Shown piece after piece: positions 110 to 21,289 of a DNA stretch of 64,000 nt. A program made the translations under genes and the position numbers. Within the stretch, counting starts at the first letter, position 1. Each line of letters begins with the position of its first letter. Origin of the DNA: Terriglobia bacterium. GTDB lineage: Bacteria; Acidobacteriota; Terriglobia; 20CM-2-55-15. The notes beneath the pieces are model-generated. The model was given only the letters and a program-made list of their open reading frames with translations, ran no database searches and had not been told where the DNA came from. The DNA is taken from the NCBI GenBank assembly GCA_965206125.1, contig CBDBIN010000041.1:155674-219673 (forward strand), read 5' to 3'.

Positions 110-1690
110 TTGCCTGCAGGATTGGAATTGGATTCAAAAACAGGAATGATAGCTGGCATGCCTACCGAACCAGGCATGTTTGCCGTGACTTTCCGGGTGA
201 GAGACTATGACGAAAGAGGTCTTGGTGCTGCTACGGAAGCTACCATCCACATCACGGAGACGACAACTGATATAGACAACAATGATCTCTTGGAGAGTTT
301 TTCGTTCAGCGACCGTGGCGGATCATCAACGACCAGTCGGGGAACAGCCACAACTACGACCGTTGGCTACGGACGGATAAGTCCAGATTCCGGCATGACG
401 ACGCCTTCCGGTCTAGCCATATTTGGGTTTATCCAAAATGGCGTTCTGGTCACAGAGGCCGGCGTTCCCGCGGCAGCACCAATCCAAGAAGGCCGCATCT
501 TCGCTGAAGTAAACGGCCCGGTGAACACGGGACTCGCCATCGCCAACCCCAACGACGTAGCCGCCACAATCTCGTTCTTCTTTACCGACGTGAATGGAGT
601 GAACTTCGGCAGCGACAACTTCCCGCTCGGTGCGAACGAACAGACTGCGAAGTTTCTGGATCAGGACCCATTCAACGGCGGAACGTCCGTGCTGGGAACG
701 TTCACATTTACATCGTCCGTACCTATTTCTGTCGTCGCCCTCCGAGGGTTCACCAACGAGCGAGGCGATTTTCTAATCACCACGCTGCCAGTCGCACCAC
801 TATCGTCAACATTCACGGGCCCGGTTTACTTCCCTCACTTTGCCGATGGCGGGGCCTGGACCACACAAGTCATTCTCGTGAACCCCACAGATTCCACGAT
901 AACGGGCAACATCGAGTTCCTAGGCCAAGGCAGTGGTACGACAGCGGCCACACCGGTAACGCTGGCGCTAGTCGGTAGACAAATCGAGCCAAGCTACTCG
1001 TATTCCATCTCACCACGCAGTGCACAGCGATTCACGACTTCAAATCCCGCCGGTGCGACTTCGGTAGGATCGGTTCGGGTGACGCCGGATGTTAGTAGCA
1101 CGAGCCCTTCTGGCCTTGGAATCTTCTCCTTCATTACGGGTGGGATTACGGTGTCTGAAGCTGGTGTACCCGCGCTTCCGGAAGCATCAGCGTTTAGGGT
1201 GTACGTTGAGGCGTCTGGGACACCTGGGGCAATTAACTCGGTCCGTAGTGGACTGGCGATCACTGACACGTCGGGATCGACGAATACCGTGACGATGGAA
1301 TTGACGGATTTGAACGGCGCAACGGTGGGTGCGGCCGCAATTCTATCCATTCCACCATCTGGTCAGGTCGCCCGATTCATCGACGAGTTCTTTACCCTGC
1401 CTGCCAACTTCTCAGGGGTACTGCGAGTAACGTCAACCTCAGATGTGGCAATTGTGGGACTGAGGGCGCGTACGAACCAACGTGGCGATTTCATGATTAC
1501 AACAACACCCCCGTCCGATGAAGTGGCGGCTCCCACCAGCGTGGATACGTACTTCCCTCACTTTGCCGATGGTGGGGGCTGGTCTACGCAATTCGTCTTG
1601 TTCAGTGGTACGGCAGGACAGACTTCGGCGGGAAGTCTGAGCTTTATCGACCAGGCTGGTCAACCACTTGATCTGGAACTCCAACAGTGA
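110..1690 (+). CDS. Secreted/cell-surface repeat protein: N-terminal He_PIG-like Ig motif (LPAGLELDSKTGMIAGMPTEPGMFAVTF) followed by two ~210-aa internal repeats, each ending in a YFPHFADGGxW motif
   Basis: Long ORF from the track. The internal duplication is visible in the translation. Only a TTG start is available after the in-frame stop at 65-67, so the 5' end is uncertain. Confidence 0.5.
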   Translation: MPAGLELDSKTGMIAGMPTEPGMFAVTFRVRDYDERGLGAATEATIHITETTTDIDNNDLLESFSFSDRGGSSTTSRGTATTTTVGYGRISPDSGMTTPSGLAIFGFIQNGVLVTEAGVPAAAPIQEGRIFAEVNGPVNTGLAIANPNDVAATISFFFTDVNGVNFGSDNFPLGANEQTAKFLDQDPFNGGTSVLGTFTFTSSVPISVVALRGFTNERGDFLITTLPVAPLSSTFTGPVYFPHFADGGAWTTQVILVNPTDSTITGNIEFLGQGSGTTAATPVTLALVGRQIEPSYSYSISPRSAQRFTTSNPAGATSVGSVRVTPDVSSTSPSGLGIFSFITGGITVSEAGVPALPEASAFRVYVEASGTPGAINSVRSGLAITDTSGSTNTVTMELTDLNGATVGAAAILSIPPSGQVARFIDEFFTLPANFSGVLRVTSTSDVAIVGLRARTNQRGDFMITTTPPSDEVAAPTSVDTYFPHFADGGGWSTQFVLFSGTAGQTSAGSLSFIDQAGQPLDLELQQ

Positions 1691-1744
1691 ACATCATCCT
1701 GAACTTCTTTGAAGAACTGAAGGAACGGGTGCCTGTACCGTAGC
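1672..1744 (+). pseudogene. Orphan C-terminal tail fragment of a Ser/Thr kinase-TolB family gene (SGTPTVNIILNFFEELKERVPVP*)
   Basis: In a different frame from the preceding ORF and directly after its stop. Translation matches the tail of kinase 3635-6334 (NVVLNWFEELKERVPPP*) and is near-identical to the orphan tail at 18740-18814. Confidence 0.5.
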
Positions 1745-2184
1745 CCTCGCTGATCGAGTCTTCCAATCCCCGCAAACTCGCCGATTCGCAAGACTGTTTC
1801 AATCCACATGACTGTGTAGTCGCCGACTCGGAGAAGTGGATTTTCACGAAGACTCCGCCAACAAGGGCGTTTCAGATCTCCGTATCTGGACTCCCCTGTC
1901 AAGTAGACGCAATTGTCCTGTGTACGATCTCCGGAGACTTAAATCAGCATCACTGACGAGACGATTCGAAGTGAGTGGCAAGTCGACTGCATCCGTATCT
2001 CCGGCCTCTCAAGTGGAATATTTTGGTTCCGGGCCATGATGGTATTCGCGCGCGGGGGGCCAACCGAGTAGACGGCCTCTTGAGGGCCAGGAGATCTGTC
2101 GGCATTTACCCGCGCCGGTCTGACCGGTACGCCATCAACTCAAAACGTCATCGCAGATCGCTGAACAGAATTTTAGACTGCGGG

Positions 2185-2763
2185 TCAGGCCGCCTGATAC
2201 TGGGCCTGATAGTCGCAGTCTCGTTTCCAGACCGCCCACACTCTTCGGGCCAGCTTGTTGGCCACCGCAACGGCCGCCTTGTTATGTCCTCGAAGTTCCT
2301 GAAGTCGAACACCCCATCGCTGTAATTCCGATGGGGTCTCTGCCTTCTGGGCCCTCCATAACACCGAACGACCTCCGTGGATGAGCAGCGTCCTGAGATA
2401 GCGATCACCACGCTTACTGATTCGATCCAACCGACGCTGATTGCCACTGGAATGTTCCCGCGGTGTGAGTCCCAGATAGCTGGCAAACTGGCGCGATGAT
2501 CGAAATCGCTGGATATCGCCGACAAACCCCACCAGGGCTGTGGCGGTCAACAGCCCTACTCCAGGGATCGAGCGGAGACGCGCCACCACCGGTGTTTGCT
2601 CGGCCAGAGATTTCAGCTCCCTGTCCACGGTGTGTAAGTGAGACTCCAGTTCCCGTATCTCTTCACACACTTGGTCCAACATCTCCCGAACCACACTGGG
2701 GATCTCGATCTCGGCATCCTCGATCAGTCCCATCACTCCCGGTACCAGATGGCGTGCGCCGAG
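2185..2763 (-). mobile_element. IS110-family transposase, C-terminal (Transposase_20-like) fragment only; N-terminal DEDD domain missing
   Basis: Translation carries SIPGVGLLTATALVGFVGDIQRFRSSRQFASYLGLTPREHSSG...ISKRGDRYLRTLL, the typical IS110/IS116/IS902 C-terminal block. An in-frame stop lies at 2764-2766, so the N-terminal half is missing. Confidence 0.7.
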
Positions 2764-2806
2764 TCAAGCCCATTCTTAGTTGAAACTCTCCACGGCTCAC
2801 GATTGG

Positions 2807-3490
2807 TCACGCAACCTTCTTCTTCGATCTCGTCGACGTCTTCGCCTCAATCTTCAGCTCCCGCCTGAGGGCTTCGCGGAGCTTTGGAAGATGACGGTAG
2901 CCGATCACCTTCCTCAAGCGTCGTTCGATGTCGATGAGCGCCGTCGCCAACCAGCGCTGCCGCTGGCTCGAGTTCTTCCAATGATCGACCTTCGCGCACC
3001 TTTCCTCGACGAGGGCATTGACCGATTCCAAGCAATTCGTCGTCTTGAACGAACGGCCCAGGACCCCGTACACGCCGAGTCGATGCAACGTGAGGGTCTC
3101 CTCCAGGCCTTCCTCAAGGCTCGCAGCGGCCGATTGGTTTCGCTCCTCGAGCTCTCCATGGAGCTGTTCGAGGGCCGCCCGGGCTTCGTTGTACTCCGGG
3201 CGCTGGTACGCACGCTGAAGCCGCTTGCGCCACGCGGCTTGCTCGGTCTTCGACAGGTAGCTCACCACGTTCTCGCGTTTGTGCCATTGGCAGCGTTGGA
3301 CCAGGGCTCGATTACCGAATGCCCGCTTGACTGCCGCGCGCAGACCTTTGCCGCCGTCGACGATCACCAGCACGCCTTCAGAGATGTCCAGGCCTCGCTC
3401 CATCAATGAACGGAGAAACGGAGTCAGTACCTGCTCGTTCTCCGTACTCGTCTCCACGAAGCCTAAGAAGCGTTTGTCGCCCGTAACCAT
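2807..3490 (-). mobile_element. IS256-family (Mutator-like) transposase, C-terminal half fragment
   Basis: 227-aa ORF with the IS256 C-terminal signature (...QRCQWHKRENVVSYL...). It lacks the N-terminal ~170 aa that carry the first DDE residues. The fragment abuts the truncated kinase gene at 3490/3494. Confidence 0.75.
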
Positions 3491-3634
3491 GCTGCACTAG
3501 AGCGCCAGGCTGACGAGCGAGCGGCCTTTTTAGACGAGATCTGCCTCGACGACGCAGATCTGCGCCGGGAGGTCGAATCACTGCTCGGCTACGCGTCCAA
3601 AGCGGAAGGATTCATCCAAGAACCCGCTCTGGAT

Positions 3635-6334
3635 GTGGTCGCTCAAGGCATGCCCCAACAGCTGGCACAGCCGATGATCGGGCGGCATGTCGGGGTTTAC
3701 GAGATCCAGGCCCTGATCGGTCGGGGAGGGATGGGCGATGTCTATCAGGCCCGGGACTCCCGGCTGGACCGCAACGTTGCGATTAAGACGTTACCGGACG
3801 TGTTCAGTTCGGATCCCGAGCGGCTGTCCCGGTTCGAGCGCGAGGCCAGGATCGTCGCTTCTCTCAACCATCCCAATATCGCGGTCATCCATGGGCTTGA
3901 AGAATACGACGGAAACCGTTTTCTCGTTCAGGAGCTGGTTGCGGGCGAAACACTGGCGGAGCAGCTCGAAGACGGCCCGCTTCCCATCAAGGAAGCGCTT
4001 CAACTGGCGGTTCAGATTGCTGCGGCGCTCGAAGCCGCCCACGAGAACGGCATCATCCATCGGGACCTGAAGCCTGCCAACATCAAGGTGACCCCCGATG
4101 ATCTCGTGAAGGTTCTCGACTTCGGCCTGGCCAAATCGATGGCGCGAGATGATGCCGACATGAACGCGTCGGTCGCCGTGACGGCCTCGACCGAACCCGG
4201 AGTTATCCTGGGGACGGCGGCCTACATGAGTCCCGAGCAGGCACGTGGCAAGCGGGTCGACAAACGGACCGACATCTGGGCGTTCGGATGCGTCTTGTAC
4301 GAAATGCTTACTGGGCGCCGACCGTTTGTGGGTGAAACACTTTCAGACGCGATCGCCAAGATTCTCGAGACCGAACCCGACTGGCAATGCCTCCCCGAGG
4401 GAATCCACCCAAGGATTCGCGAACTGATCGAACGTTGCCTCGACAAGGACGTCAAGAGTCGGTGGCACGACATCGCGGATGTGCGGTTGGACATTCAGAA
4501 GGTTCTGACCGATCCGGACGGCACCGTGGTCCAGCCCGTCGTCGCCGCGCAATCCCAGATCACGATCCCTTCGTCGCAAATCCGGGTCGTCGCCATCTTG
4601 TTGGTCGTGGCGCTGGCCGGCTATGCGGTCTGGCGCCTGATTCGCCCTGAACCGCCCACCCCGCTTACGGTATCTCGCTTCTCGTTGACCCTTCCCGAAA
4701 CCGATGAGATCACCGGCAGCGGTGTGATGACCCTGTCACCGGACGGCAACCGGTTCGTCTATGCGGCCGCACGCGACGGGGTGCAGCAGCTCTTCCTCCG
4801 TTTCCGGGATCAATCGGACCCGATCCCGATCCCGGACACCGAGGGCGCAGTACACCCGTTTTTCTCGCCAGACGGCAACTCGGTGGGCTTTTTTGCAGGA
4901 GGCGTGTTAAAGAAGATCCCGTCTTCAGGTGGATCCGCCGCGACCGTCAGTCGGGCCGGCCACTACGGCCCATCCAGTTGGGGACCCGACGAAAGCATCG
5001 TGTTCGCTTCGGTGACGGGACTGATGCAGGTGCCGACGGCAGGGGGCGAACCCCGACCGCTCACTACAGTAAATGGGGCCGACATGCACCTGTGGCCGGC
5101 GTTCCTCCCGGATGGAAAGGCCGTGCTCTTCACGATCTGGAAGAGGGGCGCACTTTCGGAGAAGAAGGTGGCAGTGGTCTCGCTAGAGACCGGCGAGCAG
5201 CACGTTCTGGCGGATGGCGCCGTTGCCCATTATGCTTCGTCGGGACATCTCGTCTTCGGACGTGAAGGTTCGCTCTGGGCGGCGCGATTTGATACGGAGC
5301 GCCTGGAGCTGACGGGAGAACCTGTTCCGACGGTCGAAGACGTCGAGGTCGACTCCTATGGTTGGACGGACTACTCGATTGCAGGAGACGGCTCACTGGT
5401 CTATCGGGCCGGCGTGGAACCGGCAGGCCGCACGCTTGTGTGGGTAGACCGGGACGGGCAGGAAGAGCCCCTCGCGGCGGCTCCGCGCAACTATTTCGAT
5501 CCCAGCATTTCCCCCGACGGGACACGAGTCGCCTTGACCGTTCTCGATGGCAGTGAGGTTCGAGAGAGCCAGAGCATCTGGATCTGGGACCTCACCCGCG
5601 AGACGCTGACCCGGCTGACCTCCGATGAGGGGATGGACGTCAAGCCTGTCTGGACACGCGATAGTCAGCGTATCGCTTTCATGTCGGACCGCCCGGATGG
5701 CTCCGGTGTCTACTGGACGGCAGCCGACGGCACCGGGAGGCCTGAACGCCTCGTGTCGGCTCCGGATCGATTCCTCGTCCCGACTTCCTGGTCTGGTGAC
5801 GGGAACACGATGTTGCTTTCCGAGGTCTTGAGCGACAACACCGGTTTTGACATCGGTGCGCTGTCGATGGATGGAGACCACGAGTTGAAACATCTCCTGC
5901 AGGAAGAATTCATTGAAGCCGGTGCGTACACCTCACCAGATGGGCGGTGGATGGCCTATGTGTCCACGGAGTCGGGCGGCCGTGAAATCTACGTGAGGCC
6001 GTTCCCCGACGTGGAAGCCGGAAAGTGGAGGGTGTCCACAGAGGGTGGAACGGACTCCGGGTGGTCGCCCGATGGGCGGGAATTGTTCTACCGTGCCGGC
6101 CCGGCGATGATGTCTGTCGCCGTGGAAACCGAGCCGACCTTCAGCGCGGGGATTCCGAAGACCCTATTCGAAGGAACGTATTTTGCGGCGGTGGGTCCGC
6201 AGTGGGCGGTCGGCTCGGACGGACGGTTCCTCATGATCAAGCGCGGTTCGACCTCGGACCGCACCGCGGTTCCACGCTTCAACGTCGTCCTGAACTGGTT
6301 TGAAGAGCTGAAGGAACGAGTGCCGCCGCCGTAA
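3635..6334 (+). CDS. Ser/Thr protein kinase with transmembrane segment and C-terminal TolB-like beta-propeller; N-terminally truncated by the IS256 fragment
   Basis: Kinase motifs GRGGMGDVY, VAIK, HRDLKPANIKV, DFGLAK and GTAAYMSPEQ are present. A TM helix (RVVAILLVVALAGYAVW) is followed by repeated SPDG propeller motifs and the conserved tail LNWFEELKERVPPP. In-frame upstream sequence 3467-3634 encodes ...ALERQADERAAFLDEICLDDADLRREVESLL, the family N-terminal extension, and has no start codon: the first ~20 codons are lost to the IS256 junction. Confidence 0.85.
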   Translation: MVAQGMPQQLAQPMIGRHVGVYEIQALIGRGGMGDVYQARDSRLDRNVAIKTLPDVFSSDPERLSRFEREARIVASLNHPNIAVIHGLEEYDGNRFLVQELVAGETLAEQLEDGPLPIKEALQLAVQIAAALEAAHENGIIHRDLKPANIKVTPDDLVKVLDFGLAKSMARDDADMNASVAVTASTEPGVILGTAAYMSPEQARGKRVDKRTDIWAFGCVLYEMLTGRRPFVGETLSDAIAKILETEPDWQCLPEGIHPRIRELIERCLDKDVKSRWHDIADVRLDIQKVLTDPDGTVVQPVVAAQSQITIPSSQIRVVAILLVVALAGYAVWRLIRPEPPTPLTVSRFSLTLPETDEITGSGVMTLSPDGNRFVYAAARDGVQQLFLRFRDQSDPIPIPDTEGAVHPFFSPDGNSVGFFAGGVLKKIPSSGGSAATVSRAGHYGPSSWGPDESIVFASVTGLMQVPTAGGEPRPLTTVNGADMHLWPAFLPDGKAVLFTIWKRGALSEKKVAVVSLETGEQHVLADGAVAHYASSGHLVFGREGSLWAARFDTERLELTGEPVPTVEDVEVDSYGWTDYSIAGDGSLVYRAGVEPAGRTLVWVDRDGQEEPLAAAPRNYFDPSISPDGTRVALTVLDGSEVRESQSIWIWDLTRETLTRLTSDEGMDVKPVWTRDSQRIAFMSDRPDGSGVYWTAADGTGRPERLVSAPDRFLVPTSWSGDGNTMLLSEVLSDNTGFDIGALSMDGDHELKHLLQEEFIEAGAYTSPDGRWMAYVSTESGGREIYVRPFPDVEAGKWRVSTEGGTDSGWSPDGRELFYRAGPAMMSVAVETEPTFSAGIPKTLFEGTYFAAVGPQWAVGSDGRFLMIKRGSTSDRTAVPRFNVVLNWFEELKERVPPP

Positions 6335-6427
6335 GGCACCGAACTGCTCAGCCGTAAGGCACCCCAGGAACTCCTGAGCGAGGTCCTAGGCATCCACATA
6401 CATGTGTAACGCTGACCCTTCCACAGA

Positions 6428-7261
6428 TCACTTCTCCCAGCTGAAAACACCTCGCTCAAAATCGAACTGGATCCGTTTCAGTCCGAGCGATGCAACCGAG
6501 AGGACGCCGAGCTTGTCGACGCCCTCCAGCGGCGGAGCAGAAGTCACGTTTGCGCGCAACTCGCGCCAGAGGGACGACCCTAAGCGCACTTCCCGCAAGC
6601 GAACTTCGGTCACGGTGGCGGCACCGGTAAGGTTCAACGTCCGGACCGATCGCGTCAGTGGCGAACGGACGATCTGACTCAACCTGTCAGTCTGGTGGAG
6701 TGTGATCCCGGCTGCCCCCGTGTCCACCGAAAGGCGAACGGGCTGACCACGAACCTCGAGGGTCACGATCGCCAGGGACTGCTCCAGATCGAAGGGAACC
6801 GACTCGGGCAAGGTTTCCGTGGGCTCGAAGACGATCTCCTCGGTCTCGAAGTCGATGCCGAAGTCGGACCGGCCAAGCACCTCCATGCCGATGATCGCGT
6901 CCACGCCCCAGTCTGAGAGGTCCGCGACAAGAACGACAGCCGCCGTGTAGATTGGACCGATTCGAAGGTTACGGACGATGGCCTGGTCGACGGTTGAAGT
7001 TTTCCCGAACGCCGCCACGACTGAGGACATGCGGGGGATGTCCAGACGATCCGCGATGCGGGTGTCGATGACGGAACGGTTTGCGCCCGTGTCAATCAGA
7101 GCTTGGAGCGGCAACCCTTCTACCTGGGCCTCGACCACGATCAGGTGGCCTCTCCGGGTTTCGAAGCTGATGCGGAGCTCGCCGGGATTCGCTGCCCAGA
7201 CCCTGGGACCGGTTGCCGTTGCCACGACTGTCAGCAGCAGGAGACTTGCGATTCGGTGCAC
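6428..7261 (-). CDS. Secreted retropepsin-like (clan AA) aspartyl protease with two DTGA active-site motifs
   Basis: Signal-peptide-like N-terminus. LIDTGANRSVI and SVDTGAAGITL motifs are each followed by Ile-Gly-type flaps (AIIGMEVLG). Confidence 0.65.
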   Translation of the reverse strand: MHRIASLLLLTVVATATGPRVWAANPGELRISFETRRGHLIVVEAQVEGLPLQALIDTGANRSVIDTRIADRLDIPRMSSVVAAFGKTSTVDQAIVRNLRIGPIYTAAVVLVADLSDWGVDAIIGMEVLGRSDFGIDFETEEIVFEPTETLPESVPFDLEQSLAIVTLEVRGQPVRLSVDTGAAGITLHQTDRLSQIVRSPLTRSVRTLNLTGAATVTEVRLREVRLGSSLWRELRANVTSAPPLEGVDKLGVLSVASLGLKRIQFDFERGVFSWEK

Positions 7262-7387
7262 GGTGTCGACCTCCCGGGCCGGGTGTCATTGGCCCTCGCA
7301 TCGGGAGGCGGAAACCGCCGTCAAAAACCGGCAAACGTGCTGGAGATTTCCGTTTCAGAGCCTGAAAATTTCCTACTTTGCTTGCCA

Positions 7388-8600
7388 CCTCAACCAATCG
7401 ATGCAACACAAGCGTTGAATCGTTCTGCTGGAGTTTCAAACTCCAGCGTCTTACGCGGCCGTTCATTGAGCTTACGTGCCACCTTGTTCAGGTGCGCCTG
7501 CGAGTGCACCGATAAGTCGGTTCTCTTTGGGAAGTACTGTCGGAGCAGGCCATTCGTGTTTTCATTGGAACCACGTTGCCATGGACTCTGCGGATCGCAG
7601 AAGTAGACGTCGATGTCGGTCGCCAGGGTAAACCGCCGATGATCTCCCATTTCCTTGCCGCGATCCCAGGTCAGCGATTTATACAGCTCGGTCGGTAGTT
7701 TCTTCGCGTGCTTGATCAGTGCAGGCACGACGGTCTTGGTCTGTTTATCCGACACTTTCACCAACATCACGTAACGGGTATGGCGTTCGACCAGGGTCGC
7801 AATGTAGGTGTTGTTCGATCCCACTATCAGATCTCCCTCCCAGTGACCGGGAACGGCACGATCTTCGACCTCGGCCGGGCGCTCACGAATCGATACGATA
7901 TCGGCGAGATCCCCTTTCCCGTGACCTTTGTGACTGGAATGTCGGGATCGACGAATCGTTCGTCTCGACCTCAGATGTCTAAGTAGTTCTTTCTTAAACA
8001 CCCCGCGCGCCTGCACGAATAGGCTGCGATAGATCGTCTCGTGGGACACGTGATACGACTCATCCTCTGGATAGGATCGCTTCAGCCAGCCGGCGATCTG
8101 TTCGGGCGACCAATTCCGCCGGAGCTTCCTCGCCACCATTCGCCGTAACCGCGGATGGCGACCCAACTGACATCGCTTCGGGCGACGGGCCCGGTTCCAA
8201 GCCTGTTCATCGGCGACAGACGCCCGGTAGTCATCATAGCCCCTATTGCGCTGGATCTCCCGGCTCACCGTCGAGGGTGAACGCCCCAGACACTCTGCGA
8301 TCGAACGCAACGACTGCTCGGCCGCGATCCCGCGGGAGATCTCCTCACGTTCCGACAGGCTCAAAGCCAACCTCGACCGTCGTCGTGGTCGAGGACGAAT
8401 GCCTCCGGTATGCGCCAGCTGACAATATACAGACGATGACAGCTTGCCAAACGCTCGCCCGATCTCATGCAGAGATTCCCCTCGCCGCCACCGATCCCAT
8501 ACCTCCGCCTTCTCCGCCGCCGTGAAACCGAATCGCATCCCTTTCCGCATACACTCCACCTCTTCCTTTTAAGATAAAGTGTTGCGTCGATCCGTTGAGA
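7388..8600 (-). mobile_element. IS30-family insertion sequence, copy 1 (about 1.21 kb)
   Basis: Terminal inverted repeats CTCAAC(G/C)GATCGA(C/T)GCAACAC found at both ends by alignment with copy 2. Flanking sequence diverges outside 7388 and 8600. Confidence 0.85.
7390..8559 (-). CDS. IS30-family DDE transposase (389 aa)
   Basis: Motifs HWEGDLI, TWDRGKEM and FCDPQSPWQRGSNENTNGLLRQYFPKRTDL. N-terminal HTH. Five aa differ from the copy at 11710-12879. Confidence 0.9.
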   Translation of the reverse strand: MECMRKGMRFGFTAAEKAEVWDRWRRGESLHEIGRAFGKLSSSVYCQLAHTGGIRPRPRRRSRLALSLSEREEISRGIAAEQSLRSIAECLGRSPSTVSREIQRNRGYDDYRASVADEQAWNRARRPKRCQLGRHPRLRRMVARKLRRNWSPEQIAGWLKRSYPEDESYHVSHETIYRSLFVQARGVFKKELLRHLRSRRTIRRSRHSSHKGHGKGDLADIVSIRERPAEVEDRAVPGHWEGDLIVGSNNTYIATLVERHTRYVMLVKVSDKQTKTVVPALIKHAKKLPTELYKSLTWDRGKEMGDHRRFTLATDIDVYFCDPQSPWQRGSNENTNGLLRQYFPKRTDLSVHSQAHLNKVARKLNERPRKTLEFETPAERFNACVASIG

Positions 8601-8646
8601 TCAGCCTAGAATGTGGGCACTTGTAAGTCACTGACAAACCGGGGTC

Positions 8647-9185
8647 ATGCCCATGAAGGCGTCTTCGTCTGCGGAGGTAACCGGCCTACTCCTTGCCTGG
8701 CGGCAAGGGGACGATGCAGCTCTCGAGCAGCTCATGCCCGTCGTCTACGCGGAGCTGCGCCGACGAGCGCAGCACTACATGGCCGGGGAGAGGGCCGGGC
8801 AGCTCTCACCACGTTGTTGCTCGTCGCCGTCGCCACCATCGCCGCGTGGAACTTGAAGCCATCCGACCCCCGGCCCGTAAGCCGATTTGTCATTGAGCTA
8901 CCGGAGGACCAGGTTCTGACTTCGGTCGGTGGTTCTGTGGTCTTTTCGCCAGATGGAACTCGAGTCGTATACGCCGCAAGCGGAGGACTCTACCTACGCT
9001 CAATCGATACACTGGGCGCGACACTGATTCCTGGGACCGAAGGGATATCTGGCAGCCCGTTCTTCTCTCCTGACGGCGAGTGGGTCGGTTATCGCTCAGC
9101 CGACCAGTTAATGAAGATCGCCCTCACTGGTGGCCCCCCTGTGAGTCTGTGCGACGCCGGCCCTCTGTACGGTGCTAGTCCCTGA
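8647..9185 (+). pseudogene. Degenerate kinase-family gene: ECF-sigma-like N-terminal region joined by deletion/frameshift to the TM + TolB-propeller start; kinase domain absent
   Basis: Frame 1 encodes TGLLLAWRQGDDAALEQLMPVVYAELRRRAQHYMAGERAGQL (sigma-70 region-2-like start of this kinase family). Frame 2 continues ...LTTLLLVAVATIAAWNLK...VVFSPDGTRVVYAAS...SPFFSPDGEWVGY. The gene ends at the IS1380-like insertion. Confidence 0.6.
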
Positions 9186-11027
9186 TCAAGCGTGATTGAC
9201 GAGGTATTGATAGCGGCATAGCAGCAGAAGTACCCGAAATGCCCCCGTTCCGTGTGAATAAAGACTTGGAAAGAGTCTACGGAAAAGGAGGCATTTCGGA
9301 TGAACGATTATACGCGCAAGAACATGAAGAACCGCAAGCGGCGAATCGAGCGCCGGCTTGCGGACCGGAATTGGACAGATCAGGCGGCGCCGATGTTTTC
9401 GGCGAGCAACATTCATTATGAGATGGGAGAGCGGACGCGCGGCACGGCGGTGGGCGGAATCGGGATGATGCAGTTGGTGGCGCGGCGGACGGGGCTGGTC
9501 AAAGCCATCGACGAGAGTGTGCATGTGCTGAAGCGGCACTTGCCGTATCACGAATCGGATCACGTGCTGAACATCGCCTATAACGCGTTGAATGGAGGGA
9601 CGTGCCTGGAGGACATCGAGTTGCGGCGCAACGACGAAGTGTATCTGGATGCGCTGGGAGCGCAACGGATTCCGGACCCGACGACGGCGGGAGACTTCTG
9701 CCGGAGATTTGAGCCCAGCGACGTGGAGTCTCTGATGGAGGCGACGAATCAAGTCCGGCTGCGAGTCTGGCGCCAGCAGCCCGAGGCGTTTTTCGAAGAA
9801 GCGGTGTTGGACGCCGATGGGACACTGGCTGAAACCACAGGCGAATGCAAGCAAGGAATGGACGTGGCCTACAACGGGACCTGGGGGTATCACCCGCTGG
9901 TGATTTCGCTGGCGAATACTCAAGAGCCGCTGTACCTGGTCAATCGCAGCGGTAACCGGCCCTCGCATGAGGGAGCGGCCGCACGGTTCGACCAGGCCAT
10001 CGCGCTGTGCCGTCGAGGCGGGTTTCGCCAGATCCTGCTGCGCGGGGACACCGACTTCAGCCAGACCCGGCACCTGGATGGATGGGACGACCAGGGCGTG
10101 GGATTCATCTTCGGCATCGACGCCATGCAGAATCTGGTGGCGCTGGCCGATGAACTGGAACCGCACCAATGGACGCGTCTGGAACGGCCCGCCAAGTACG
10201 CGGTGGCCACCGAACCGCGCCAACGTCCCGACAACGTGAAGGAACAAGTCGTTCGGGAGCGCGGTTTCGACAATATCCGGTTGCAGGGCGAGGATGTGGC
10301 CGAGTTTGCGTATCGGCCCAGAGCCTGCGACCGGGACTACCGCGTTGTCGTGGTGCGGAAGAATCTGTCGGTGGCCAAAGGCGAACAGGTGTTGTTCGAC
10401 GACATCCGATACTTCTTCTACATTACCAACCGCTCGGATTCGGCCAGCCAGATTGTGCTCCGTGCGAATCAACGGTGCAATCAAGAGAATCTCATTGAGC
10501 AGCTCAAGAACGGCGTTCAGGCCTTGAGGATGCCGGTCGGGGATCAGACCAGCAACGGGGCCTACATGGTCATGGCGTCGCTGGCCTGGACACTGAAGGC
10601 GTGGTTTGCGTTGCTGCTGCCCGAAACCGGACGCTGGGGCCAGAAGTATCAGGCCGAGAAACAGACGGTACTGCACATGGAGTTCAAGACGTTTCTAAAC
10701 GCCTTCATGTTCGTGCCTTGTCAGCTCGTGCGCACCGGGCGGCGCATCCTCTTCAGGATTCTGGCCTGGAACCGGTGGTTGCCGGTCTTGTTCCGTGCCG
10801 TGGATGTGCTGCATCAACCTCTGCGATGCTGACCCGATCATGGCCCTGAGCCCGGGCGATCGAGGTCCCGGTTTCTGTCAACCGCTCCAACACCAGCGAG
10901 GCTGAACTGAAACAGATCCAACAGAAACCCGATACCTGGATAAAACGATCCGGGAGCGGGATTCTATGCCTCGAATTTTATGCGCGCAACCTGGCCGTTG
11001 GCGGACTGGTTATGCGCTTGTTTTGGG
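9180..11027 (+). mobile_element. IS1380-like (IS4-superfamily) insertion sequence, about 1.85 kb, inserted into the TolB-propeller pseudogene
   Basis: GCTAGT is present on both flanks (9174-9179 and 11028-11033), a likely target-site duplication. The propeller ORF reads ...LYGAS before the element and resumes ...GASWGTDDTILFGQ after it. Imperfect terminal IRs CCC....CAAGCG. Confidence 0.7.
9300..10832 (+). CDS. IS1380-family/IS4-like DDE transposase (510 aa)
   Basis: Long ORF. The C-terminal signature R-x3-E-x6-K (RCNQENLIEQLK) follows YITNRSD. Sits inside the TSD-bounded element. Confidence 0.75.
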   Translation: MNDYTRKNMKNRKRRIERRLADRNWTDQAAPMFSASNIHYEMGERTRGTAVGGIGMMQLVARRTGLVKAIDESVHVLKRHLPYHESDHVLNIAYNALNGGTCLEDIELRRNDEVYLDALGAQRIPDPTTAGDFCRRFEPSDVESLMEATNQVRLRVWRQQPEAFFEEAVLDADGTLAETTGECKQGMDVAYNGTWGYHPLVISLANTQEPLYLVNRSGNRPSHEGAAARFDQAIALCRRGGFRQILLRGDTDFSQTRHLDGWDDQGVGFIFGIDAMQNLVALADELEPHQWTRLERPAKYAVATEPRQRPDNVKEQVVRERGFDNIRLQGEDVAEFAYRPRACDRDYRVVVVRKNLSVAKGEQVLFDDIRYFFYITNRSDSASQIVLRANQRCNQENLIEQLKNGVQALRMPVGDQTSNGAYMVMASLAWTLKAWFALLLPETGRWGQKYQAEKQTVLHMEFKTFLNAFMFVPCQLVRTGRRILFRILAWNRWLPVLFRAVDVLHQPLRC

Positions 11028-11636
11028 GCTAGTTGGGGCACGGACGACACCATTCTCTTTGGGCAGTCCGAAGGCATCATGCGTGTTTCCGCTAACGGCG
11101 GGATTCCGGAGACGCTGGTACCAGCGGAGAGAGGAGAACGGTTTTTTGGCCCGCAGATCCTGCCCGACGGGGATTCGTTGCTCTACACGGTGGCGGTCTG
11201 GATGAACCCCCGTGCGACCCTCTGGGATGAAGCCCAGGTTGTCATCCGGTCGCTGGAAACGGGGGATGAGAAATCGCTGTTTGAAGGCCACGATGCCCGA
11301 TATCTATCTACGGGGCATCTCGTGTACATCTCAGCGGATGTTGTGTATGCCATTCCCTTTGATTTGGCCCGTCTGGAATCCTCGGGCGAGTCGGTTCCAG
11401 TTGTGAATGGCGTTGCGCGAACCCCGCCCGCTTTAACAGTGGACTCGACTGGGGATGGGCATTTCGGTCTCTCTAATCAAGGTTCGCTGGTGTACGTTCC
11501 TGCCGGTGTTCTGGGAGCAAGACCCGACCCTCAGAGGGGATTGGTTTGGGTGGACCGCGACGGAAGTAATGTGACTCCACTCGATCTTCCTAAGGCATGT
11601 GACCTTCTGATTGACCTCAACTCCTTTCCCTCATAG
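11028..11636 (+). pseudogene. TolB-like beta-propeller fragment (continuation of gene 8647-9185 after the IS1380-like insertion), 3' truncated
   Basis: Homologous to the propeller of 3635-6334 (…LVWVDRDGSNVTPL matches LVWVDRDGQEEPL). Homology stops about 80 bp before the IS30 copy-2 end. Confidence 0.6.
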
Positions 11637-11668
11637 TATTTAGCCAACTTTTCGCTGTTCGTTGCTGG

Positions 11669-12882
11669 TCTCAACGGATCGACGCAACACTTTATCTTAA
11701 AAGGAAGAGGTGGAGTGTATGCGGAAAGGGATGCGATTCGGTTTCACGGCGGCGGAGAAGGCGGAGGTATGGGATCGGTGGCGGCGAGGGGAATCTCTGC
11801 ATGAGATCGGGCGAGCGTTTGGCAAGCTGTCATCGTCTGTATATTGTCAGCTGGCGCATACCGGAGGCATTCGTCCTCGACCACGACGACGGTCGAGGTT
11901 GGCTTTGAGCCTGTCGGAACGTGAGGAGATCTCCCGCGGGATCGCGGCCGAGCAGTCGTTGAGTTCGATCGCAGAGTGTCTGGGGCGTTCACCCTCGACG
12001 GTGAGCCGGGAGATCCAGCGCAATGGGGGCTATGATGACTACCGGGCGTCTGTCGCCGATGAACAGGCTTGGAACCGGGCCCGTCGCCCGAAGCGATGTC
12101 AGTTGGGTCGCCATCCGCGGTTACGGCGAATGGTGGCGAGGAAGCTCCGGCGGAATTGGTTGCCCGAACAGATCGCCGGCTGGCTGAAGCGATCCTATCC
12201 AGAGGATGAGTCGTATCACGTGTCCCACGAGACGATCTATCGCAGACTATTCGTGCAGGCGCGCGGGGTGTTTAAGAAAGAACTACTTAGACATCTGAGG
12301 TCGAGACGAACGATTCGTCGATCCCGACATTCCAGTCACAAAGGTCACGGGAAAGGGGATCTCGCCGATATCGTATCGATTCGTGAGCGCCCGGCCGAGG
12401 TCGAAGATCGTGCCGTTCCCGGTCACTGGGAGGGAGATCTGATAGTGGGATCGAACAACACCTACATTGCGACCCTGGTCGAACGCCATACCCGTTACGT
12501 GATGTTGGTGAAAGTGTCGGATAAACAGACCAAGACCGTCGTGCCTGCACTGATCAAGCACGCGAAGAAACTACCGACCGAGCTGTATAAATCGCTGACC
12601 TGGGATCGCGGCAAGGAAATGGGAGATCATCGGCGGTTTACCCTGGCGACCGACATCGACGTCTACTTCTGCGATCCGCAGAGTCCATGGCAACGTGGTT
12701 CCAATGAAAACACGAATGGCCTGCTCCGACAGTACTTCCCAAAGAGAACCGACTTATCGGTGCACTCGCAGGCGCACCTGAACAAGGTGGCACGTGAGCT
12801 CAATGAACGGCCGCGTAAGACGCTGGAGTTTGAAACTCCAGCAGAACGATTCAACGCTTGTGTTGCATCGATCGGTTGAGGT
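11669..12882 (+). mobile_element. IS30-family insertion sequence, copy 2; inverted relative to copy 1
   Basis: The whole element, including 41 bp upstream of the ATG and the IR overlapping the transposase stop, matches copy 1. Flanks are unrelated. Confidence 0.85.
11710..12879 (+). CDS. IS30-family DDE transposase (389 aa), near-identical to 7390-8559
   Basis: Same motifs as copy 1. Five aa substitutions. Confidence 0.9.
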   Translation: MECMRKGMRFGFTAAEKAEVWDRWRRGESLHEIGRAFGKLSSSVYCQLAHTGGIRPRPRRRSRLALSLSEREEISRGIAAEQSLSSIAECLGRSPSTVSREIQRNGGYDDYRASVADEQAWNRARRPKRCQLGRHPRLRRMVARKLRRNWLPEQIAGWLKRSYPEDESYHVSHETIYRRLFVQARGVFKKELLRHLRSRRTIRRSRHSSHKGHGKGDLADIVSIRERPAEVEDRAVPGHWEGDLIVGSNNTYIATLVERHTRYVMLVKVSDKQTKTVVPALIKHAKKLPTELYKSLTWDRGKEMGDHRRFTLATDIDVYFCDPQSPWQRGSNENTNGLLRQYFPKRTDLSVHSQAHLNKVARELNERPRKTLEFETPAERFNACVASIG

Positions 12883-12907
12883 GGCATTTCAACAGGGACT
12901 TCTAACC

Positions 12908-13037
12908 ATGCAACCCGGCACGTAGCTTGGCCACTACGAGATCCTTTCCGCGCTTGGCAAGGGTGGGAATGGGACTGTGTGGCGCGAGAAGGGCAAAGTC
13001 GCAATCCTCGCTCAGGTGTGGTGTGGCAACTTCTAAC
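12908..13037 (+). pseudogene. Ser/Thr kinase N-terminal fragment with in-frame TAG (MQPGT*LGHYEILSALGKGGNGTVWRE...)
   Basis: Glycine-loop motif LGKGGxG. Parallels 13665 ([27 protein letters not shown]). A stop replaces Gln at codon 6, and homology is lost after about 40 codons. Confidence 0.5.
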
Positions 13038-13284
13038 GAAAGCATCCCGTCCGCCCAGAACAAGAACCTTCTGGATCGGTTCCTATCTCTGTTCAGCGTG
13101 GTCAAGTCTGGTGAGGGCGGTAGCGCGATCCTGCTGACCCTGAATGTCTTCCTGCTCCTCGGTGCCTACTACTTCCTGAAGATCTCTCGGGACACTTTGA
13201 TTCTCGCGGAGTCGGGCGCGGCCGCGGCGAGCTAGGTGGCGAAACTTCGCGGAGCTTTCGCCGAACGGGAGGTGGCTCTCCTAC

Positions 13285-13659
13285 ATGTCTGATGAATCAG
13301 GCCAGTGGCAAATCTACGTCGTCAGCTATCCCGACCAGCGAGTAGCCAAGCGGCTGGTGTCCTCGACAGGTGGCGAGGAACCGCGCTGGAGCCCGGATGG
13401 GAGCGAGATCATTTACAGGTACGGGTCGCAATGGTTTTCCGCCTCGTTTTCGGACGATCCGTCGCTGGAACTGGGGTCACCAGAGGTACTGTTTGAAGGA
13501 CCCTATATCAACATCCCCGGGTACTCCTGGGACATCTCACCGGATGGTGACCGCTTTCTCTTGGTGGAGAACCCCGCCCAAAACGAGCCTCTTACCAAAC
13601 TAGTCGTGATCACGAAGTTCTTCGACGAGATTCGGCGAAGACTGCCCGTGGATCAGTAG
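13285..13659 (+). pseudogene. C-terminal fragment of a kinase-TolB propeller gene (last blades plus tail variant ...[14 protein letters not shown])
   Basis: Aligns with residues about 780-899 of 3635-6334 (EIYV..P....W..S..GG....WSPDG.E). No upstream kinase or propeller sequence remains. Confidence 0.55.
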
Positions 13660-13664
13660 GGGAA

Positions 13665-13901
13665 ATGACTCCCGGCACCCAACTCGGCAGCTACGAGATC
13701 CTCTCACCACTCGGCAAGGGCGGGATGGGAGAAGTGTGGCGTGCACGCGACCAGAAGCTCGGACGCGAAGTCGCCATCAAGACCCACCCCGAAGAGTTTG
13801 CCAAGGACGAGGAACGCCTGGCAAGCCCTTCAAGGCCTGGACTACCGGTAGCTGCGTCGGAGTTGCCTGATTCTACCAGTCTGTCCCACTTGTCCCACTA
13901 A
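13665..13901 (+). pseudogene. Ser/Thr kinase N-terminal fragment (78 aa: G-loop and VAIK lysine, then truncation)
   Basis: [45 protein letters not shown]..., then non-kinase sequence and a stop. Confidence 0.55.
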
Positions 13902-14076
13902 TCCCAGAACTGACAACCCTCGAAACAAAGGGGGTAGTTATATATAGCGGTATAAAAACTCCTGGGATATCCGGGATAACTGGGACACCCCCTCGGATCA
14001 GTCCCAGACAGGGAGAGTTCCAGGGACTCAAAGCTGTCCTTGAGCATCACCATCAATCGTCCGTGCATAAAACGAA

Positions 14077-14109
14077 AGCCCAGGGAACCTGTGGCACCCT
14101 GGGCTTTGA
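14077..14109 (-). terminator. Stem-loop (11-bp perfect stem AAAGCCCAGGG/CCCTGGGCTTT) downstream of the minus-strand gene 14165-15516, followed by a T-rich run on the minus strand
   Basis: The inverted repeat is visible directly in the sequence. On the minus strand the stem is followed by CGTTTTAT. Confidence 0.4.
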
Positions 14110-14164
14110 CTGCCAATCCAAGAGCGGTGCCGCCCCTGGAAGGTTTCAGACGCTGGCTGCTTCT

Positions 14165-15516
14165 CTAATCGTCCTCATCATCGTCATCATCGTCTTCCTG
14201 GCCCTCAACGAGCGTCTGGTAGGCTCTCTCCATCAGGACGTACGCGCCGAAGAGGTCCTCGTCGTCGTCTCTGTCGTCTCCGTTGTCCGCTGAGATGTAG
14301 GATACGAAAGGACCGTCCATGCCGGAAACGCCGGCTTCGAAGTAGGTCAGGGCCCGCGCGTCCTCCACCGGCGATACTGTGATGAACAACTTCCGGAGCT
14401 TTCTCAGGCCGCGATTGAACTGGGCTCTCGCCCTGTTCACGACGTTGTTTGGCCGGATGCCCAGGGTTTCGAACAACAGGATCGCATCTCCGACGATCGG
14501 TACGACCTTCAGCAAGGATTCGGGACGGAATGAATTATGGTTGCGGACTCCGCTGGACAGTGAATTGGCGATGATCCGGATTTCATCGGCTTCGATCTTT
14601 TCCCTCAGCGGTCCGATTACCTGGTCAACGATCGTCTGCTGAACGCTATCGAGCGCGTCTGCATTGCCCTGGATTGCGGTGGCAAGCTGCTGCGTAGGTA
14701 CCCCAAGACGTTGGGCAGTGTATCGATGCCGGCGGCGACCGTGGAGTTGACACTTAGGACCGCTCCGGCGATGCTCGCCTGCACATTGCCCTCGACGATC
14801 CCGAGAGCAGCGCGGACAGCATCAACGGCACTGACGGCGCGGTCACCCTGCGCCACCACGTTGGCGTTGATGTTGCCCTCGCTCCCGACGATCTGGCCGA
14901 CAACGGCGTCTTCGCTGAAAATGATCTGGTCGACGATGCCCGGGTGCGGATCCAGTGGTGGAGGTGGGGGTGGTGGCGGCGGCGGTTCAGGCGCGCCGGC
15001 GATCGCGATGTTCGAATTTGACGTGTCGATTTTGTAAAAAGTAAAAAGATCCGGGATTGGAAGCAGCGTGCCCCGCAGCTGGATCCGGAATTCGTATACG
15101 TTCCGGTCTACGCCGGTTCCCGCGATCGGGTCGTTGCTGATGTTAAAAGAAGCCGAAACCGGCGCGGCGGGAGTCGAGTTGCACAGTATGGCGGGAGGCA
15201 TCGGCGTCTCCCCGACCTTGCGGTCGTTGACGTACAACTCGATCACCATCTGACCGTTGAACACACAACTGGGTCCGAGGAAAAGGGTGAAACCCACGGC
15301 CTCCACGCTGGCGATGCCGTTGGTTGAAATGCGATCGCCCCGTGCACCGTCTCCCTGGGCGAACCAGAAAAAGGGACCGAGGAATAAGTTCTGGCCAAAG
15401 GTGGTGTCGTGACCCTGGGGAAAGGCAAAGACCTCCGACAGGACCTGCGCCCGGGCGGTGCCGGCCCCCAGCAGAACGAACATGAAGACCCACAAGTGTC
15501 TCTTTGGAAATTTCAT
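14165..15516 (-). CDS. Secreted hypothetical protein with a poly-proline linker (P12) and a poly-Asp/Glu C-terminal tail; apparent frameshift near 14700
   Basis: ORF 14617-15516 has a signal peptide. ORF 14165-14515 stays open upstream in a second frame across 14516-14740, overlapping the first. One nucleotide slip near 14700 would join the two into a single ~450-aa protein. Confidence 0.45.
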
Positions 15517-16183
15517 GACAACTCCTGTTTCATCCTGAAACCGGCCTCCCCCGCCCCACTACAGATGGCGCCCTGCAAGGCCGAATTCCTAGGTATGGTT
15601 CCTGATAGAGCGGGTTATAGAATAAGGACAGTGTGAAGTAAAGACCGAACGTTCGAAGTACGGAACAATTTGGTACGGAAAACCGTGCTCATCTGAGGGC
15701 TGCTCTGCCAGGCATGCGACCTTCTGATTGCTATCAACCCCCACCCGTAGTTAGATTGACCAAGTCTTGGAGTGATCCAGTTCGCTTTCGCGCGGATGCT
15801 GTCTGGTCGGGTCCAAGGAGCGCAAGGGTACCATTTCATCCCGTACAATAAAGTACTTGGTAATTTAAAGTAAGTCGTGAGAGAGTCGTGCACATGAGGA
15901 ATCCTCCGCCGTTGCTGGTTGTCATCGCTGGTGCCGGGCAGCTACTGCTCGCCGCGGTGGCCATGTGGGTATGGGAGACGATCCCGCGCGAGGCCGATCC
16001 GGAGGCGCTGCCGTCGCGCGTGCTCGAGCCGGAGCGCCGCAGGCCCGCAGGCTCAGCTCGCCAGCGCGTTGTGCCGGTACGCCGAAGTTGGCGATTCCAG
16101 CGTAATCTTCCGCCGGCCCGTAAGGGAGGCATGCGGGCAACCCGGCACAAGGCTCGTGCCTTATGCCGGAGGGTTGACTGACC

Positions 16184-17521: not shown

Positions 17522-17690
17522 ATCACCAGCCGCCCCGCGATTCAACGCGTCATCGGAATCATTCAACGGTTCTTGAGTCACTTGGGGGGCGACGCCGACC
17601 CTAGGTGCCGGATGTAATCGGCTCCCGAGCCGAGCACCCCAAAACCCCGGGGTTATTGTCCGGCTGGCGCAGATCTTCTACTCAATTCGT

Positions 17691-18182
17691 TCAAGACGAT
17701 AGGTAATCGCACCACGTTGAGCCCATCCCTTGAAGTGTGAGGATCAGCGATTCACCCTCAAATCTGTAGCCGTAACTCAAGTCGGTTCCAGCCCTGAACG
17801 GCGGCATCACGTTCGGGATCTTCGCAATGATGTTGCGTACGGTGATTTCCGAATCCGTAGCTGCATACGTGCCCGCATCAGCGATGAAGTTGTCATAGGC
17901 CGCCAGCCGTTCCGCATCTGTTCGCTCTGCGCTAAGCGGTGCCCTCGGCTCCACACTGGGAATCAGCATGTTGCTGAAATGTCGTTCCGTGAACATGTAC
18001 AACCCCGGTCGAGGGTCTGCGTTCGTTGTCGTCCCATCTGGCGTAGTCTCCACGGTCTCGGAGATCAGCCAGACACCGACAAGTTGCTCAGGTCCTTCTG
18101 TCTGACCGTGCGCCGGAACAGATGCCAAACCAACGAGGATCAGGAACGTGCCAGTGACGGTGAGAAGATTACGTATGCTCAT
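17691..18182 (-). CDS. Secreted lipocalin-like domain protein
   Basis: Signal peptide, then GVWLISE...TPDG...GLYMFTERHFS..., the lipocalin-like (PF13924-type) pattern. Confidence 0.45.
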   Translation of the reverse strand: MSIRNLLTVTGTFLILVGLASVPAHGQTEGPEQLVGVWLISETVETTPDGTTTNADPRPGLYMFTERHFSNMLIPSVEPRAPLSAERTDAERLAAYDNFIADAGTYAATDSEITVRNIIAKIPNVMPPFRAGTDLSYGYRFEGESLILTLQGMGSTWCDYLSS

Positions 18183-18340
18183 AGCCCCCCGTGCCTCCTT
18201 CCGCGTGGTTCAGCCATCCTGCCCTATTTCTGGTGTGGACTCCAGATTTCCTCCTTCATTGACCCTAAACCACTACTCTCTTACTATTTAGCCAAGTTCC
18301 ACCCAGCATCGGGCGACGGACCGCCCTGTATCGGCGGTCT

Positions 18341-18721: not shown

Positions 18722-18739
18722 GCGGCTTTTTCTGCTCCA

Positions 18740-18814: not shown

Positions 18815-18833
18815 TCGGCTAACAGAGGAACTC

Positions 18834-19574: not shown

Positions 19575-19576
19575 CG

Positions 19577-21192: not shown

Positions 21193-21289
21193 GGGCGGGG
21201 TGTCAACGAATGGAGGGGTTGGTCGGTCGGTGTGCGATCATAGCCAGAACGCTGAAGAACATGGCGCTTGACACACTCGCCATCGGCGA

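Follow-up and report, generated by a model that had tools for sequence, protein, structure and literature searches.

How do the last few codons of a protein kinase gene come to stand on their own behind unrelated genes? The question is raised by a 64,000-nt stretch of a Terriglobia bacterium genome (contig CBDBIN010000041.1, positions 155,674–219,673; referred to here as the window), in which the motif N[WF]FEELKERVP occurs three times, always on the plus strand. One copy closes an intact 899-residue gene (3635–6334, +; Pfam Pkinase and PD40) of the Ser/Thr-kinase–PD40 (TolB-like propeller) paralog family, referred to here as K; its attached tail (6272–6334) ends in NVVLNWFEELKERVPPP and a stop codon. 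The C-terminal end of these genes is called the tail and the N-terminal end the head. The other two copies are orphans, lying behind the unrelated genes 110–1690 and 18341–18721. A preliminary description of the window had pointed them out and read them as the product of recurrent recombination at a defined site, either by cassette-like displacement of the gene body or around a small 3′ module acting as nucleic acid. The observation is essentially right and the interpretation is partly supported. On balance, orphan tails are probably what erosion has left of lost K paralogs, with homogenised ends that serve as substrates for homologous recombination; ordinary gene decay accounts for them without a special cassette mechanism, and as a feature they are of an ordinary kind.

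Orphan tail 1 (VNIILNFFEELKERVPVP and a stop) lies at 1687–1744 (+), possibly starting from about 1675, and comprises the last ~19–23 codons of a kinase–PD40 gene. Orphan tail 2 (PGTSVPKVNIVLNWFEELKERVPVP and a stop) lies at 18740–18814 (+) and, with the adjoining ATGATCGGC, extends to 18819. Identical in both is a 26-nt core, TTTGAAGAACTGAAGGAACGGGTGCC, for which 0.00 matches are expected in shuffled sequence; the intact gene has the same core except for two synonymous differences. As had been noticed, the orphans are closer to each other (86% identity) than to the attached tail (75%). Both carry the C-terminal motif of the family, [IV]N[IV][IV]LN[WF]FEELK.RVP.. followed by the stop. Both also match a hidden Markov model (HMM) of the K C terminus at positions 124/127–150 of 150 (scores 33–38) and the full-length K HMM at positions 866/868–891 of 891, the extents for orphan tail 1 being 127–150 and 868–891. 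In the 600 nt preceding each orphan, no reading frame shows kinase or propeller homology, and by Pfam the open reading frames (ORFs) upstream are unrelated to K. Judged from sequence, the two orphans are 5′-truncated relics of K genes and not chance matches.

Immediately upstream of orphan tail 1 is a gene for a surface protein with He_PIG/Ig-like repeats (110–1690, +; Pfam He_PIG). The tail starts at the stop codon of this ORF, in the −1 frame relative to it, and readthrough of the TGA at 1688 would append just 3 codons. Four metagenomic homologues (L115–L118, 52–79% identity) terminate at the same residue, so the C terminus and stop (TGA 1688–1690) are natural; the idea that the ORF is cut by the tail junction, suggested by a 241-residue internal repeat, is refuted by the same homologues. 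An in-frame TAG (65–67) inside the Ig domain indicates that the gene has probably lost its 5′ end. Orphan tail 2 begins 18 nt past ORF 18341–18721 and is in frame after its TGA, which is a coincidence, since the frames of upstream ORFs in related loci split almost evenly, as detailed below.

Similarity had been thought to end at the stop codon, and on this point the preliminary description does not hold. The DNA 3′ of tails falls into three native kinds of K downstream sequence, termed classes A, B and C. Orphan tail 1 is followed by 138 nt of class B (1745–1882, +), which is the lost kinase gene's own 3′ intergenic DNA, homologous to the corresponding regions of full-length K genes in L089, L091, L094 and L098 in alignments to these chosen loci (a 15-nt search with 3 mismatches returned mostly noise). 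Behind orphan tail 2 comes ATGATCGGC, with which the next kinase gene begins in many tandem arrays, its start overlapping the stop as CCATGA; 18761–18819 is 98.3% identical to full K genes in L044 and L021. Orphan tail 1 thus keeps its native 3′ flank, and orphan tail 2 is a piece of a tail–head joint from a tandem array.

Orphan tails are common in related genomes. A scan for the back-translated motif, with one genome per GTDB species, gave at least 113 loci of 8 kb (numbered with the prefix L), mostly from long-read metagenome-assembled genomes (MAGs) of Terriglobia and Vicinamibacterales; all census figures refer to these listed loci, with the window added where so stated. The exact motif ends 123 tails (120 in the listed loci and the three in the window). 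Of these, 48 have no K homology beyond their last 13–38 residues, 45 still belong to a K gene of which at least the C-terminal ~140 residues are present, and 30 are intermediate, or undetermined or cut by a chunk edge. A DNA profile (nhmmer) finds 44 additional non-exact tails, mostly unattached. In all, the listed loci hold 99 unattached tails, more than the complete K genes in the same DNA (23 complete, and 37 cut by chunk ends). Searching a public protein collection with the tail peptide gives 533 predicted proteins of 29–77 residues with little beyond the tail, short ORFs only; many are already annotated as hypothetical proteins, some of them on multi-megabase contigs, and they are likely to be annotation artefacts from orphan tails or contig-end fragments. 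The Solibacter genome paper (PMC3174227) notes the expansion of kinase paralogs and does not mention such gene fragments. Chimeric assembly is ruled out as the source of the junctions, as the same ones recur in independent long-read MAGs.

The proposal of a shared breakpoint holds only in part. In the window, both 5′ limits do lie in the variable linker or the first tail codons, but at different nucleotides, and in relatives they spread over more than 60 nt, the outermost lying ~40 nt 5′ of the AACTGG core and the innermost 25 nt within it; the 3′ side, too, is cut in some copies. Nucleotide alignment therefore does not yield a fixed module of ~70 bp with a sharp 5′ boundary. Recurrent recombination is borne out by a crossover signature in four pairs of loci, described below; a defined site is not, as the 5′ limits vary continuously.

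The genes upstream of orphan tails are unrelated to one another and mostly encode complete enzymes (aldehyde dehydrogenase, nitrilase, MBL hydrolases). Relative to tails that are not full length, their frames are distributed 10/13/11, and this randomness excludes the fusion to the upstream ORF, by programmed frameshift or readthrough, that had been considered. Stop-to-stop ORFs over tails measure 16–60 residues and often lack ATG, GTG or TTG (for example, in L042); the many copies without a start codon, and with nonsense changes, exclude the tail as a stand-alone micro-ORF. The 44 non-exact tails show missense and nonsense changes, indels, internal deletions and truncation, with 5′ starts at DNA-HMM positions 2–34. 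Among unattached tails found without ascertainment, ~40 carry changes that break the 11-codon core (missense, nonsense, indel or truncation), including 5′ truncations that remove half of it. Random frame, no conserved start codon, disabling changes and arbitrary truncation are the marks of pseudogene relics.

The six-frame search with a full-length K profile (891 positions) that identified the K genes counted above also identifies 198 fragments, and over-represented among these are both extremities of the gene: positions 1–50 are covered by 64–65 fragments, the middle by 13–20 and positions 851–891 by 99–108. Many fragments are joints, in which a tail, an intergenic stretch and a head follow one another. 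What most often precedes a relic tail in the same orientation is a head relic 0.9–5 kb off (15 cases), next another tail (12), and a relic head and a relic tail with unrelated genes between them form the commonest arrangement. Neighbouring tails share a strand in 50 of 53 cases, which degraded tandem arrays would lead one to expect. Tail-less K bodies number only two in the same DNA, and this rarity favours loss of the body over an insertion splitting body from tail. Displacement of the gene body is thus apt as a description of the layout; a dedicated cassette mechanism is not supported.

Erosion could produce this pattern as follows. K genes would turn over by birth and death in acidobacterial genomes rich in insertion sequences (IS), and a dead copy would be removed by successive deletions, those entering a functional neighbour not being tolerated. 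The pieces surviving longest would be the ones abutting neighbours, namely the tail at the 3′ end and, by symmetry, the head at the 5′ end. Such an effect of geometry would give lengths following ~1/b², so that most relics would measure a few tens of codons and seem to share a breakpoint. In the corresponding null model, random deletions are barred from functional DNA beyond the gene end and hit a 3′-anchored piece in proportion to its length b, from which a time-weighted length density of ~1/b² follows. For 108 relics, the predicted and observed fractions are 0.67 and 0.62 at 12–35 residues, 0.23 and 0.21 at 36–108, 0.075 and 0.09 at 109–325, and 0.023 and 0.07 at 326–860; simulations with mean deletion sizes of 100–1000 nt place 0.73–0.87 in the shortest class. 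Under this model, the pile-up of very short tails that looks like a shared breakpoint is a prediction of plain erosion.

Several observations weigh against erosion as the explanation. The null model assumes untouchable DNA right after the tail, and an ORF follows within 100 nt in only 19 of 90 unattached tails; the DNA downstream is often IS. Orphan tail 2 has unrelated DNA 18–20 nt off on both sides and no obvious protected neighbour. Several relics start 0–40 nt past the natural stop of a co-directional gene, and of the 40 gaps of ≤100 nt, 31 have a co-directional gene upstream, which would also fit a 3′-end element. No relative with an intact K gene at a relic position was found among the at least 113 loci. 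The closest homologous locus for ORF 110–1690 among the matches listed (L115, 74% nucleotide identity) is without downstream synteny, and a distant hint comes from L060, where a homologue of the gene upstream of the L082 relic is followed by a K head at the chunk end. Finally, associations of gene and relic persist at 73–80% flank identity, and for a neutral 60-nt relic to last that long requires either gene conversion, which is not directly demonstrated, or selection. This persistence suggests that relics are refreshed by conversion or otherwise retained.

Recognition and recombination have the same basis. Tail and head are the only K segments kept near-identical in DNA among paralogs of one lineage, probably through concerted evolution, and relics of 40–60 nt are recognisable for this reason. 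The same identity lets relics recombine homologously with many other tails, swapping downstream DNA and breaking synteny exactly at tails. Four pairs of loci show this, three between sister species (L057/L065, L022/L082 and L015/L060) and one within a single genome (L005/L042). In each, a common upstream gene and orphan tail are 96–97% identical and homology stops at the stop codon of the tail. Mismatches across the four pairs amount to 9/280 (3.2%) upstream of the tail, 6/120 (5%) in its first 30 nt and 18/124 (14.5%) in its last 31 nt, and the DNA downstream of the stop is unrelated. A gradient of this kind is the signature of crossing-over within the tail, by which the downstream DNA is swapped.

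The homogeneity itself is best seen in codon usage. In attached tails, synonymous sites vary far less than they do in three kinase motifs of these genes (HRDLKPxN, DFG and Gly-loop), and the tails use otherwise rare, atypical codons (GAA, TTT). At the same tail positions, Vicinamibacterales, Gemmatimonadota and Desulfobacterales have GAG/GAG/GAG with CGC or CGG. The uniformity is thus lineage-specific, which fits concerted evolution, presumably by gene conversion, rather than a universal constraint on the nucleic acid. Orphan tails are more homogeneous than attached ones.

Function at the level of DNA or RNA is an alternative source of such uniformity. The ~57-nt tail, as DNA or as the 3′ end of the mRNA, might be bound by a regulator, a small RNA or a nucleoid protein and co-regulate the kinases, while other genes would keep or recruit orphan copies as 3′ modules; we regard this as quite unlikely. 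It would explain the synonymous uniformity and non-preferred codons of attached tails, the frequent location of orphan tails 0–100 nt past a co-directional stop, the long persistence of relics beside the same neighbour and a direct repeat in the tail core (GAAGAAC-T-GAAGGAAC). The tail has no thermodynamic fold signal (z-scores of −0.71 to +0.50), no palindrome and no Rfam match, however, which excludes a structured RNA or a known RNA family; the codon uniformity is confined to lineages, the ~40 broken cores are hard to reconcile with a conserved element, and the excess of co-directional genes does not clearly rise above what is usual in bacteria. The conserved 3′ module of the preliminary description accordingly finds little support.

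A softer version of the cassette idea holds that tails, heads and the 50-nt class A sequence are kept as portable homology arms, permitting recombinase-independent exchange of cassettes inside one genome or following the uptake of DNA. Units made of a single gene and a tail, with both edges defined, do recur in different contexts, measuring 693 nt in L022/L082 (where AAACGTTGAC at the left edge is similar to the end of class A and the tail stop forms the right edge) and 788 nt in L005/L042; tails also lie on either side of several unrelated genes (L095, L005, L110 and L082). The prevalence of foreign DNA between head and tail, the co-direction of adjacent tails and the exchange of downstream DNA at tails point the same way. 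Exchange at repeats, however, follows automatically from sequence identity and is no proof that relics are kept for that purpose. Upstream flanks are mostly single-copy, 24 of 48 being without another copy in the sample; relics decay and are truncated at arbitrary points; their length distribution requires no selection; and each new junction of gene and tail would still demand an illegitimate event. We therefore consider arms kept for exchange unlikely. A stronger form, in which the homogenised ends (tail, head and class A hairpin) are maintained as integrase-free recombination handles and orphan tails are active docking sites, seems to us doubtful to a slightly greater degree; binding of the tail sequence by a dedicated factor is a related possibility. 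What keeps these minority readings of handle or bound site alive are the tight post-stop junctions, the recurring units of gene plus tail and the long persistence of relics. Were handles real, Acidobacteriota would own a homology-based, integrase-free cassette system that moves genes into and out of kinase arrays and reshuffles the DNA downstream.

Orphan gene ends can also arise by site-specific integration, as for e14 in icd and for islands in tRNA genes, where the attachment (att) site is duplicated. Islands integrating into K 3′ ends would carry their own copy of the tail and leave the displaced original orphaned. In keeping with this, DNA upstream of an orphan tail is common to species at 96–97% identity while that downstream differs, and the intact kinase tail (ending at 6334) and orphan tail 2 (from 18740) are in direct orientation 12.4 kb apart. 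Scans for integrases and resolvases, which covered window ORFs and tail neighbours and not whole genomes, found none in ten window ORFs (eight of them between 6334 and 23000), and thus no tyrosine or serine recombinase in 6334–23000, and, for the 74 downstream neighbours, none in the 25 Pfam families that occur most often, the rarer single-member families not all being shown. The integrase or island model is rejected on the basis of these scans. Moreover, ordinary enzymes lie upstream of orphan tails, unattached tails equal or outnumber attached ones, the duplicated extent varies continuously, and head relics, which the model does not predict, are equally common. Duplication of an att site is thereby largely refuted, and scarcely credible here.

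Spread of the tail as a small mobile repeat is the remaining alternative. Tail and class A might move as a unit, in the manner of miniature inverted-repeat transposable elements (MITEs) or repetitive extragenic palindromic (REP) sequences, or hitch-hike with a mobile element, which we judge very unlikely. Such spread would account for the greater homogeneity of orphan tails, for a unit of ~145–165 nt (−71 to about +72/+94) that recurs in L018, L019 and L056 with neither flank in common (and as a diverged copy in L036), for class A being an imperfect palindrome that can occur apart from tails and serve as an IS110-family target, and for transposases making up ~20% of the 74 ORFs that directly follow unattached tails. 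Against it, 5′ ends are variable rather than fixed, adjacent copies are direct, and no terminal inverted repeats were found (target-site duplications were not systematically searched for); the 3′ flanks are native K classes A, B and C and not one element; class A is present at neither window orphan; and the transposases come from at least five unrelated IS families. A single transposase family tied to orphan tails is likewise excluded, as the minus-strand ORFs of ~400 residues are IS110, IS30, IS4-like and IS91-like members together with ordinary genes.

The class A sequence, TTTTCGAGGTCAAGTCCTGATAAATCATCTTCTCGGACGTTGAGAATT, is an imperfect palindrome of ~50 nt that follows the stop of many tails (L015, L066, L030, L079, L105 and others). 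It has 55 copies in the listed loci, of which 18 have no tail-core match just upstream and ~9 have no tail remnant at all. An IS110-family element sits in class A at the identical point (GTCAAGTCCTG|TATCTGGACTCC) in L015 and L066, as if this were a specific target, and window positions 1871–1882 are a weak relative of class A. A second repeat, (G)GCGGATAAGCG[AG]TATAAGCAG...CTATGGCAGC..., abuts K relics on either side in several genomes: it lies just upstream of orphan tails in L018, L019, L036 and L056, occurs also in L097, and in L105/L065 directly follows a head that breaks off near residue 68. It could represent the two ends of an element once inside kinase genes. A ‘mini-K’ element of head, spacer and tail was rejected, as stitching of L105 to L065 places the GGATAAGCGRTATAAGCAG repeat behind a head without a following tail.

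Of the 74 downstream neighbours of unattached tails, four are DUF6152 proteins and three are NHL-repeat proteins, both kinds thus recurring directly behind tails. In L042 and L069, two places in one genome, the orphan tail adjoins a convergent NHL gene (62% amino acid identity). In L046 (reverse strand, 3083–3591), a kinase catalytic domain up to DFG (model positions 17–169) is joined directly to a tail (871–891), the junction being a single internal deletion of ~700 codons.

Among known systems, the closest to the erosion we favour is pseudogene decay. Mira, Ochman and Moran reportedly described in 2001 the deletional bias and the erosion of pseudogenes in bacterial genomes, and gene remnants from deletional erosion are found in the IS-rich genomes of Shigella, Bordetella and M. 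leprae. Like those remnants, the tails are non-coding, in random frames, with disabling mutations and among IS, and their lengths fit a random-deletion model. Unlike them, they derive from one family with dozens of copies per genome, are recognisable at just 40–60 nt through homogenised gene ends, and form, with the heads, a dispersed repeat family in its own right. Concerted evolution and ectopic recombination, as between rRNA operons, tuf genes, IS copies or REP sequences, are matched by short near-identical DNA in diverged paralogs and by synteny breaks that coincide with the tail repeat and carry a crossover signature inside it. In K, however, identity is limited to ~60 nt per gene end, the bodies are too diverged for DNA alignment, and non-genic relics participate beside intact genes.

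Integron attC arrays, including integrase-less ones, share with the tails co-directional arrays of 60–110-nt repeats, content that is hypervariable between close relatives, and unrelated co-directional ORFs each with a repeat just past the stop. Stretches of ORF–tail–ORF–tail occur in L082, L110, L099 and L031, and degraded tandem kinase arrays would look alike. The tails differ in being the coding 3′ end of a gene family with variable boundaries; they show neither a significant hairpin nor a conserved crossover site (GTTRRRY), and an integron integrase was not found near them. The orphan C-terminal modules of contact-dependent inhibition (CDI) and Rhs systems are also stand-alone 3′ fragments downstream of other genes that have a segment in common with full-length genes and can recombine; there the conserved segment is the 5′ edge of a variable functional toxin–immunity module, whereas the K fragment consists wholly of conserved segment and has neither coding potential of its own nor a partner gene. 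The 3′ ends duplicated by e14 or phage 21 in icd, or by tRNA and tmRNA islands, resemble the tails as orphan gene-end copies in direct orientation, kilobases from the intact copy; the K tails differ in the absence of an integrase or island structure from what was scanned, in their continuously varying extent, in the presence of head relics and in orphans being at least as numerous as attached tails.

The relics, many of them per genome and 40–100 nt long, come from one kinase family; as markers of gene-order changes between sister species, they help to explain the plasticity of large soil and sediment genomes in the poorly cultured Acidobacteriota. More generally, a breakpoint shared among gene fragments may stem from erosion limited by a boundary, and a null-model test is due before a site-specific mechanism is invoked.

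Further K debris surrounds the intact gene. A second K gene lies in pieces at 8613–13659 (+), as traced by tblastn, translation and the full-length HMM: residues ~308–444 are at 8780–9179, residues 440–616 at 11018–11591, and the C-terminal 137 residues, with a divergent tail, at 13239–13659. Interrupting it are a 1.86-kb IS4-like element (9174–11033), 88% identical to copies in six loci, and an IS30 copy (11666–12886); Pfam identifies DDE_Tnp_1_4 in this region. Two inverted IS30 copies, 7390–8559 (−) and 11710–12879 (+), bracket the K fragments split by the IS4-like element, and the layout of 7383–12886 resembles a composite transposon. A head relic (12904–12988, +) lies within the region of the broken gene. 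Another (13665–13826, +), the first ~54 codons of the next kinase gene, stands directly behind the preceding tail in a tail–head joint and then breaks off abruptly.

A third head relic (19577–19672, +), cut after ~32 codons, lies downstream of orphan tail 2. Between the two is a 757-nt segment (18820–19576, +) flanked by the 9-nt direct repeat ATGATCGGC (18811–18819 and 19577–19585). Because the same 9 nt recur at the start of the head relic, the segment would be an insertion into the tail–head joint, or head, of the downstream kinase gene, accompanied by a duplication of 9 bp. It contains an ORF (18834–19574) of 246 residues with an N-terminal CxxC and remote homologues only, and neither a transposase nor terminal inverted repeats were found in it. 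One remote homologue (P0003) adjoins three reverse-transcriptase genes in L114.

The IS families of the window are IS110, IS256, IS30 and IS4-like, with copies common to the window and related MAGs at up to 99.7% identity. Inserted into the class B intergenic DNA after orphan tail 1 is an IS110-family remnant (1883–2751, −), with the end TATCTGGACTCCCCTGTCA and the C-terminal part of a transposase at 2185–2736 (Pfam Transposase_20); it matches L015 and L112 at 77% nucleotide identity. It is cut by an IS256-family remnant (2760–3490), which is 99.6% identical to L028.

Elsewhere in the window there is a tRNA gene (21822–21894, −), 3 kb past orphan tail 2, and a pair of paralogous PMT_2/TPR glycosyltransferase-like genes (30411–32318 and 34391–35896), 3.6 kb apart, with 74–76% nucleotide identity in patches (repeat families D5, D6 and D8). 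A 178-nt tandem repeat at 39118–39609 (2.8 copies, 96% matches) holds a short palindromic motif, GGAACCCGGTCACTACNGTTCCCGGTTCTG, and related motifs of 30–54 nt, REP-like in appearance, occur singly at 29430, 45145, 45356 and 62828.

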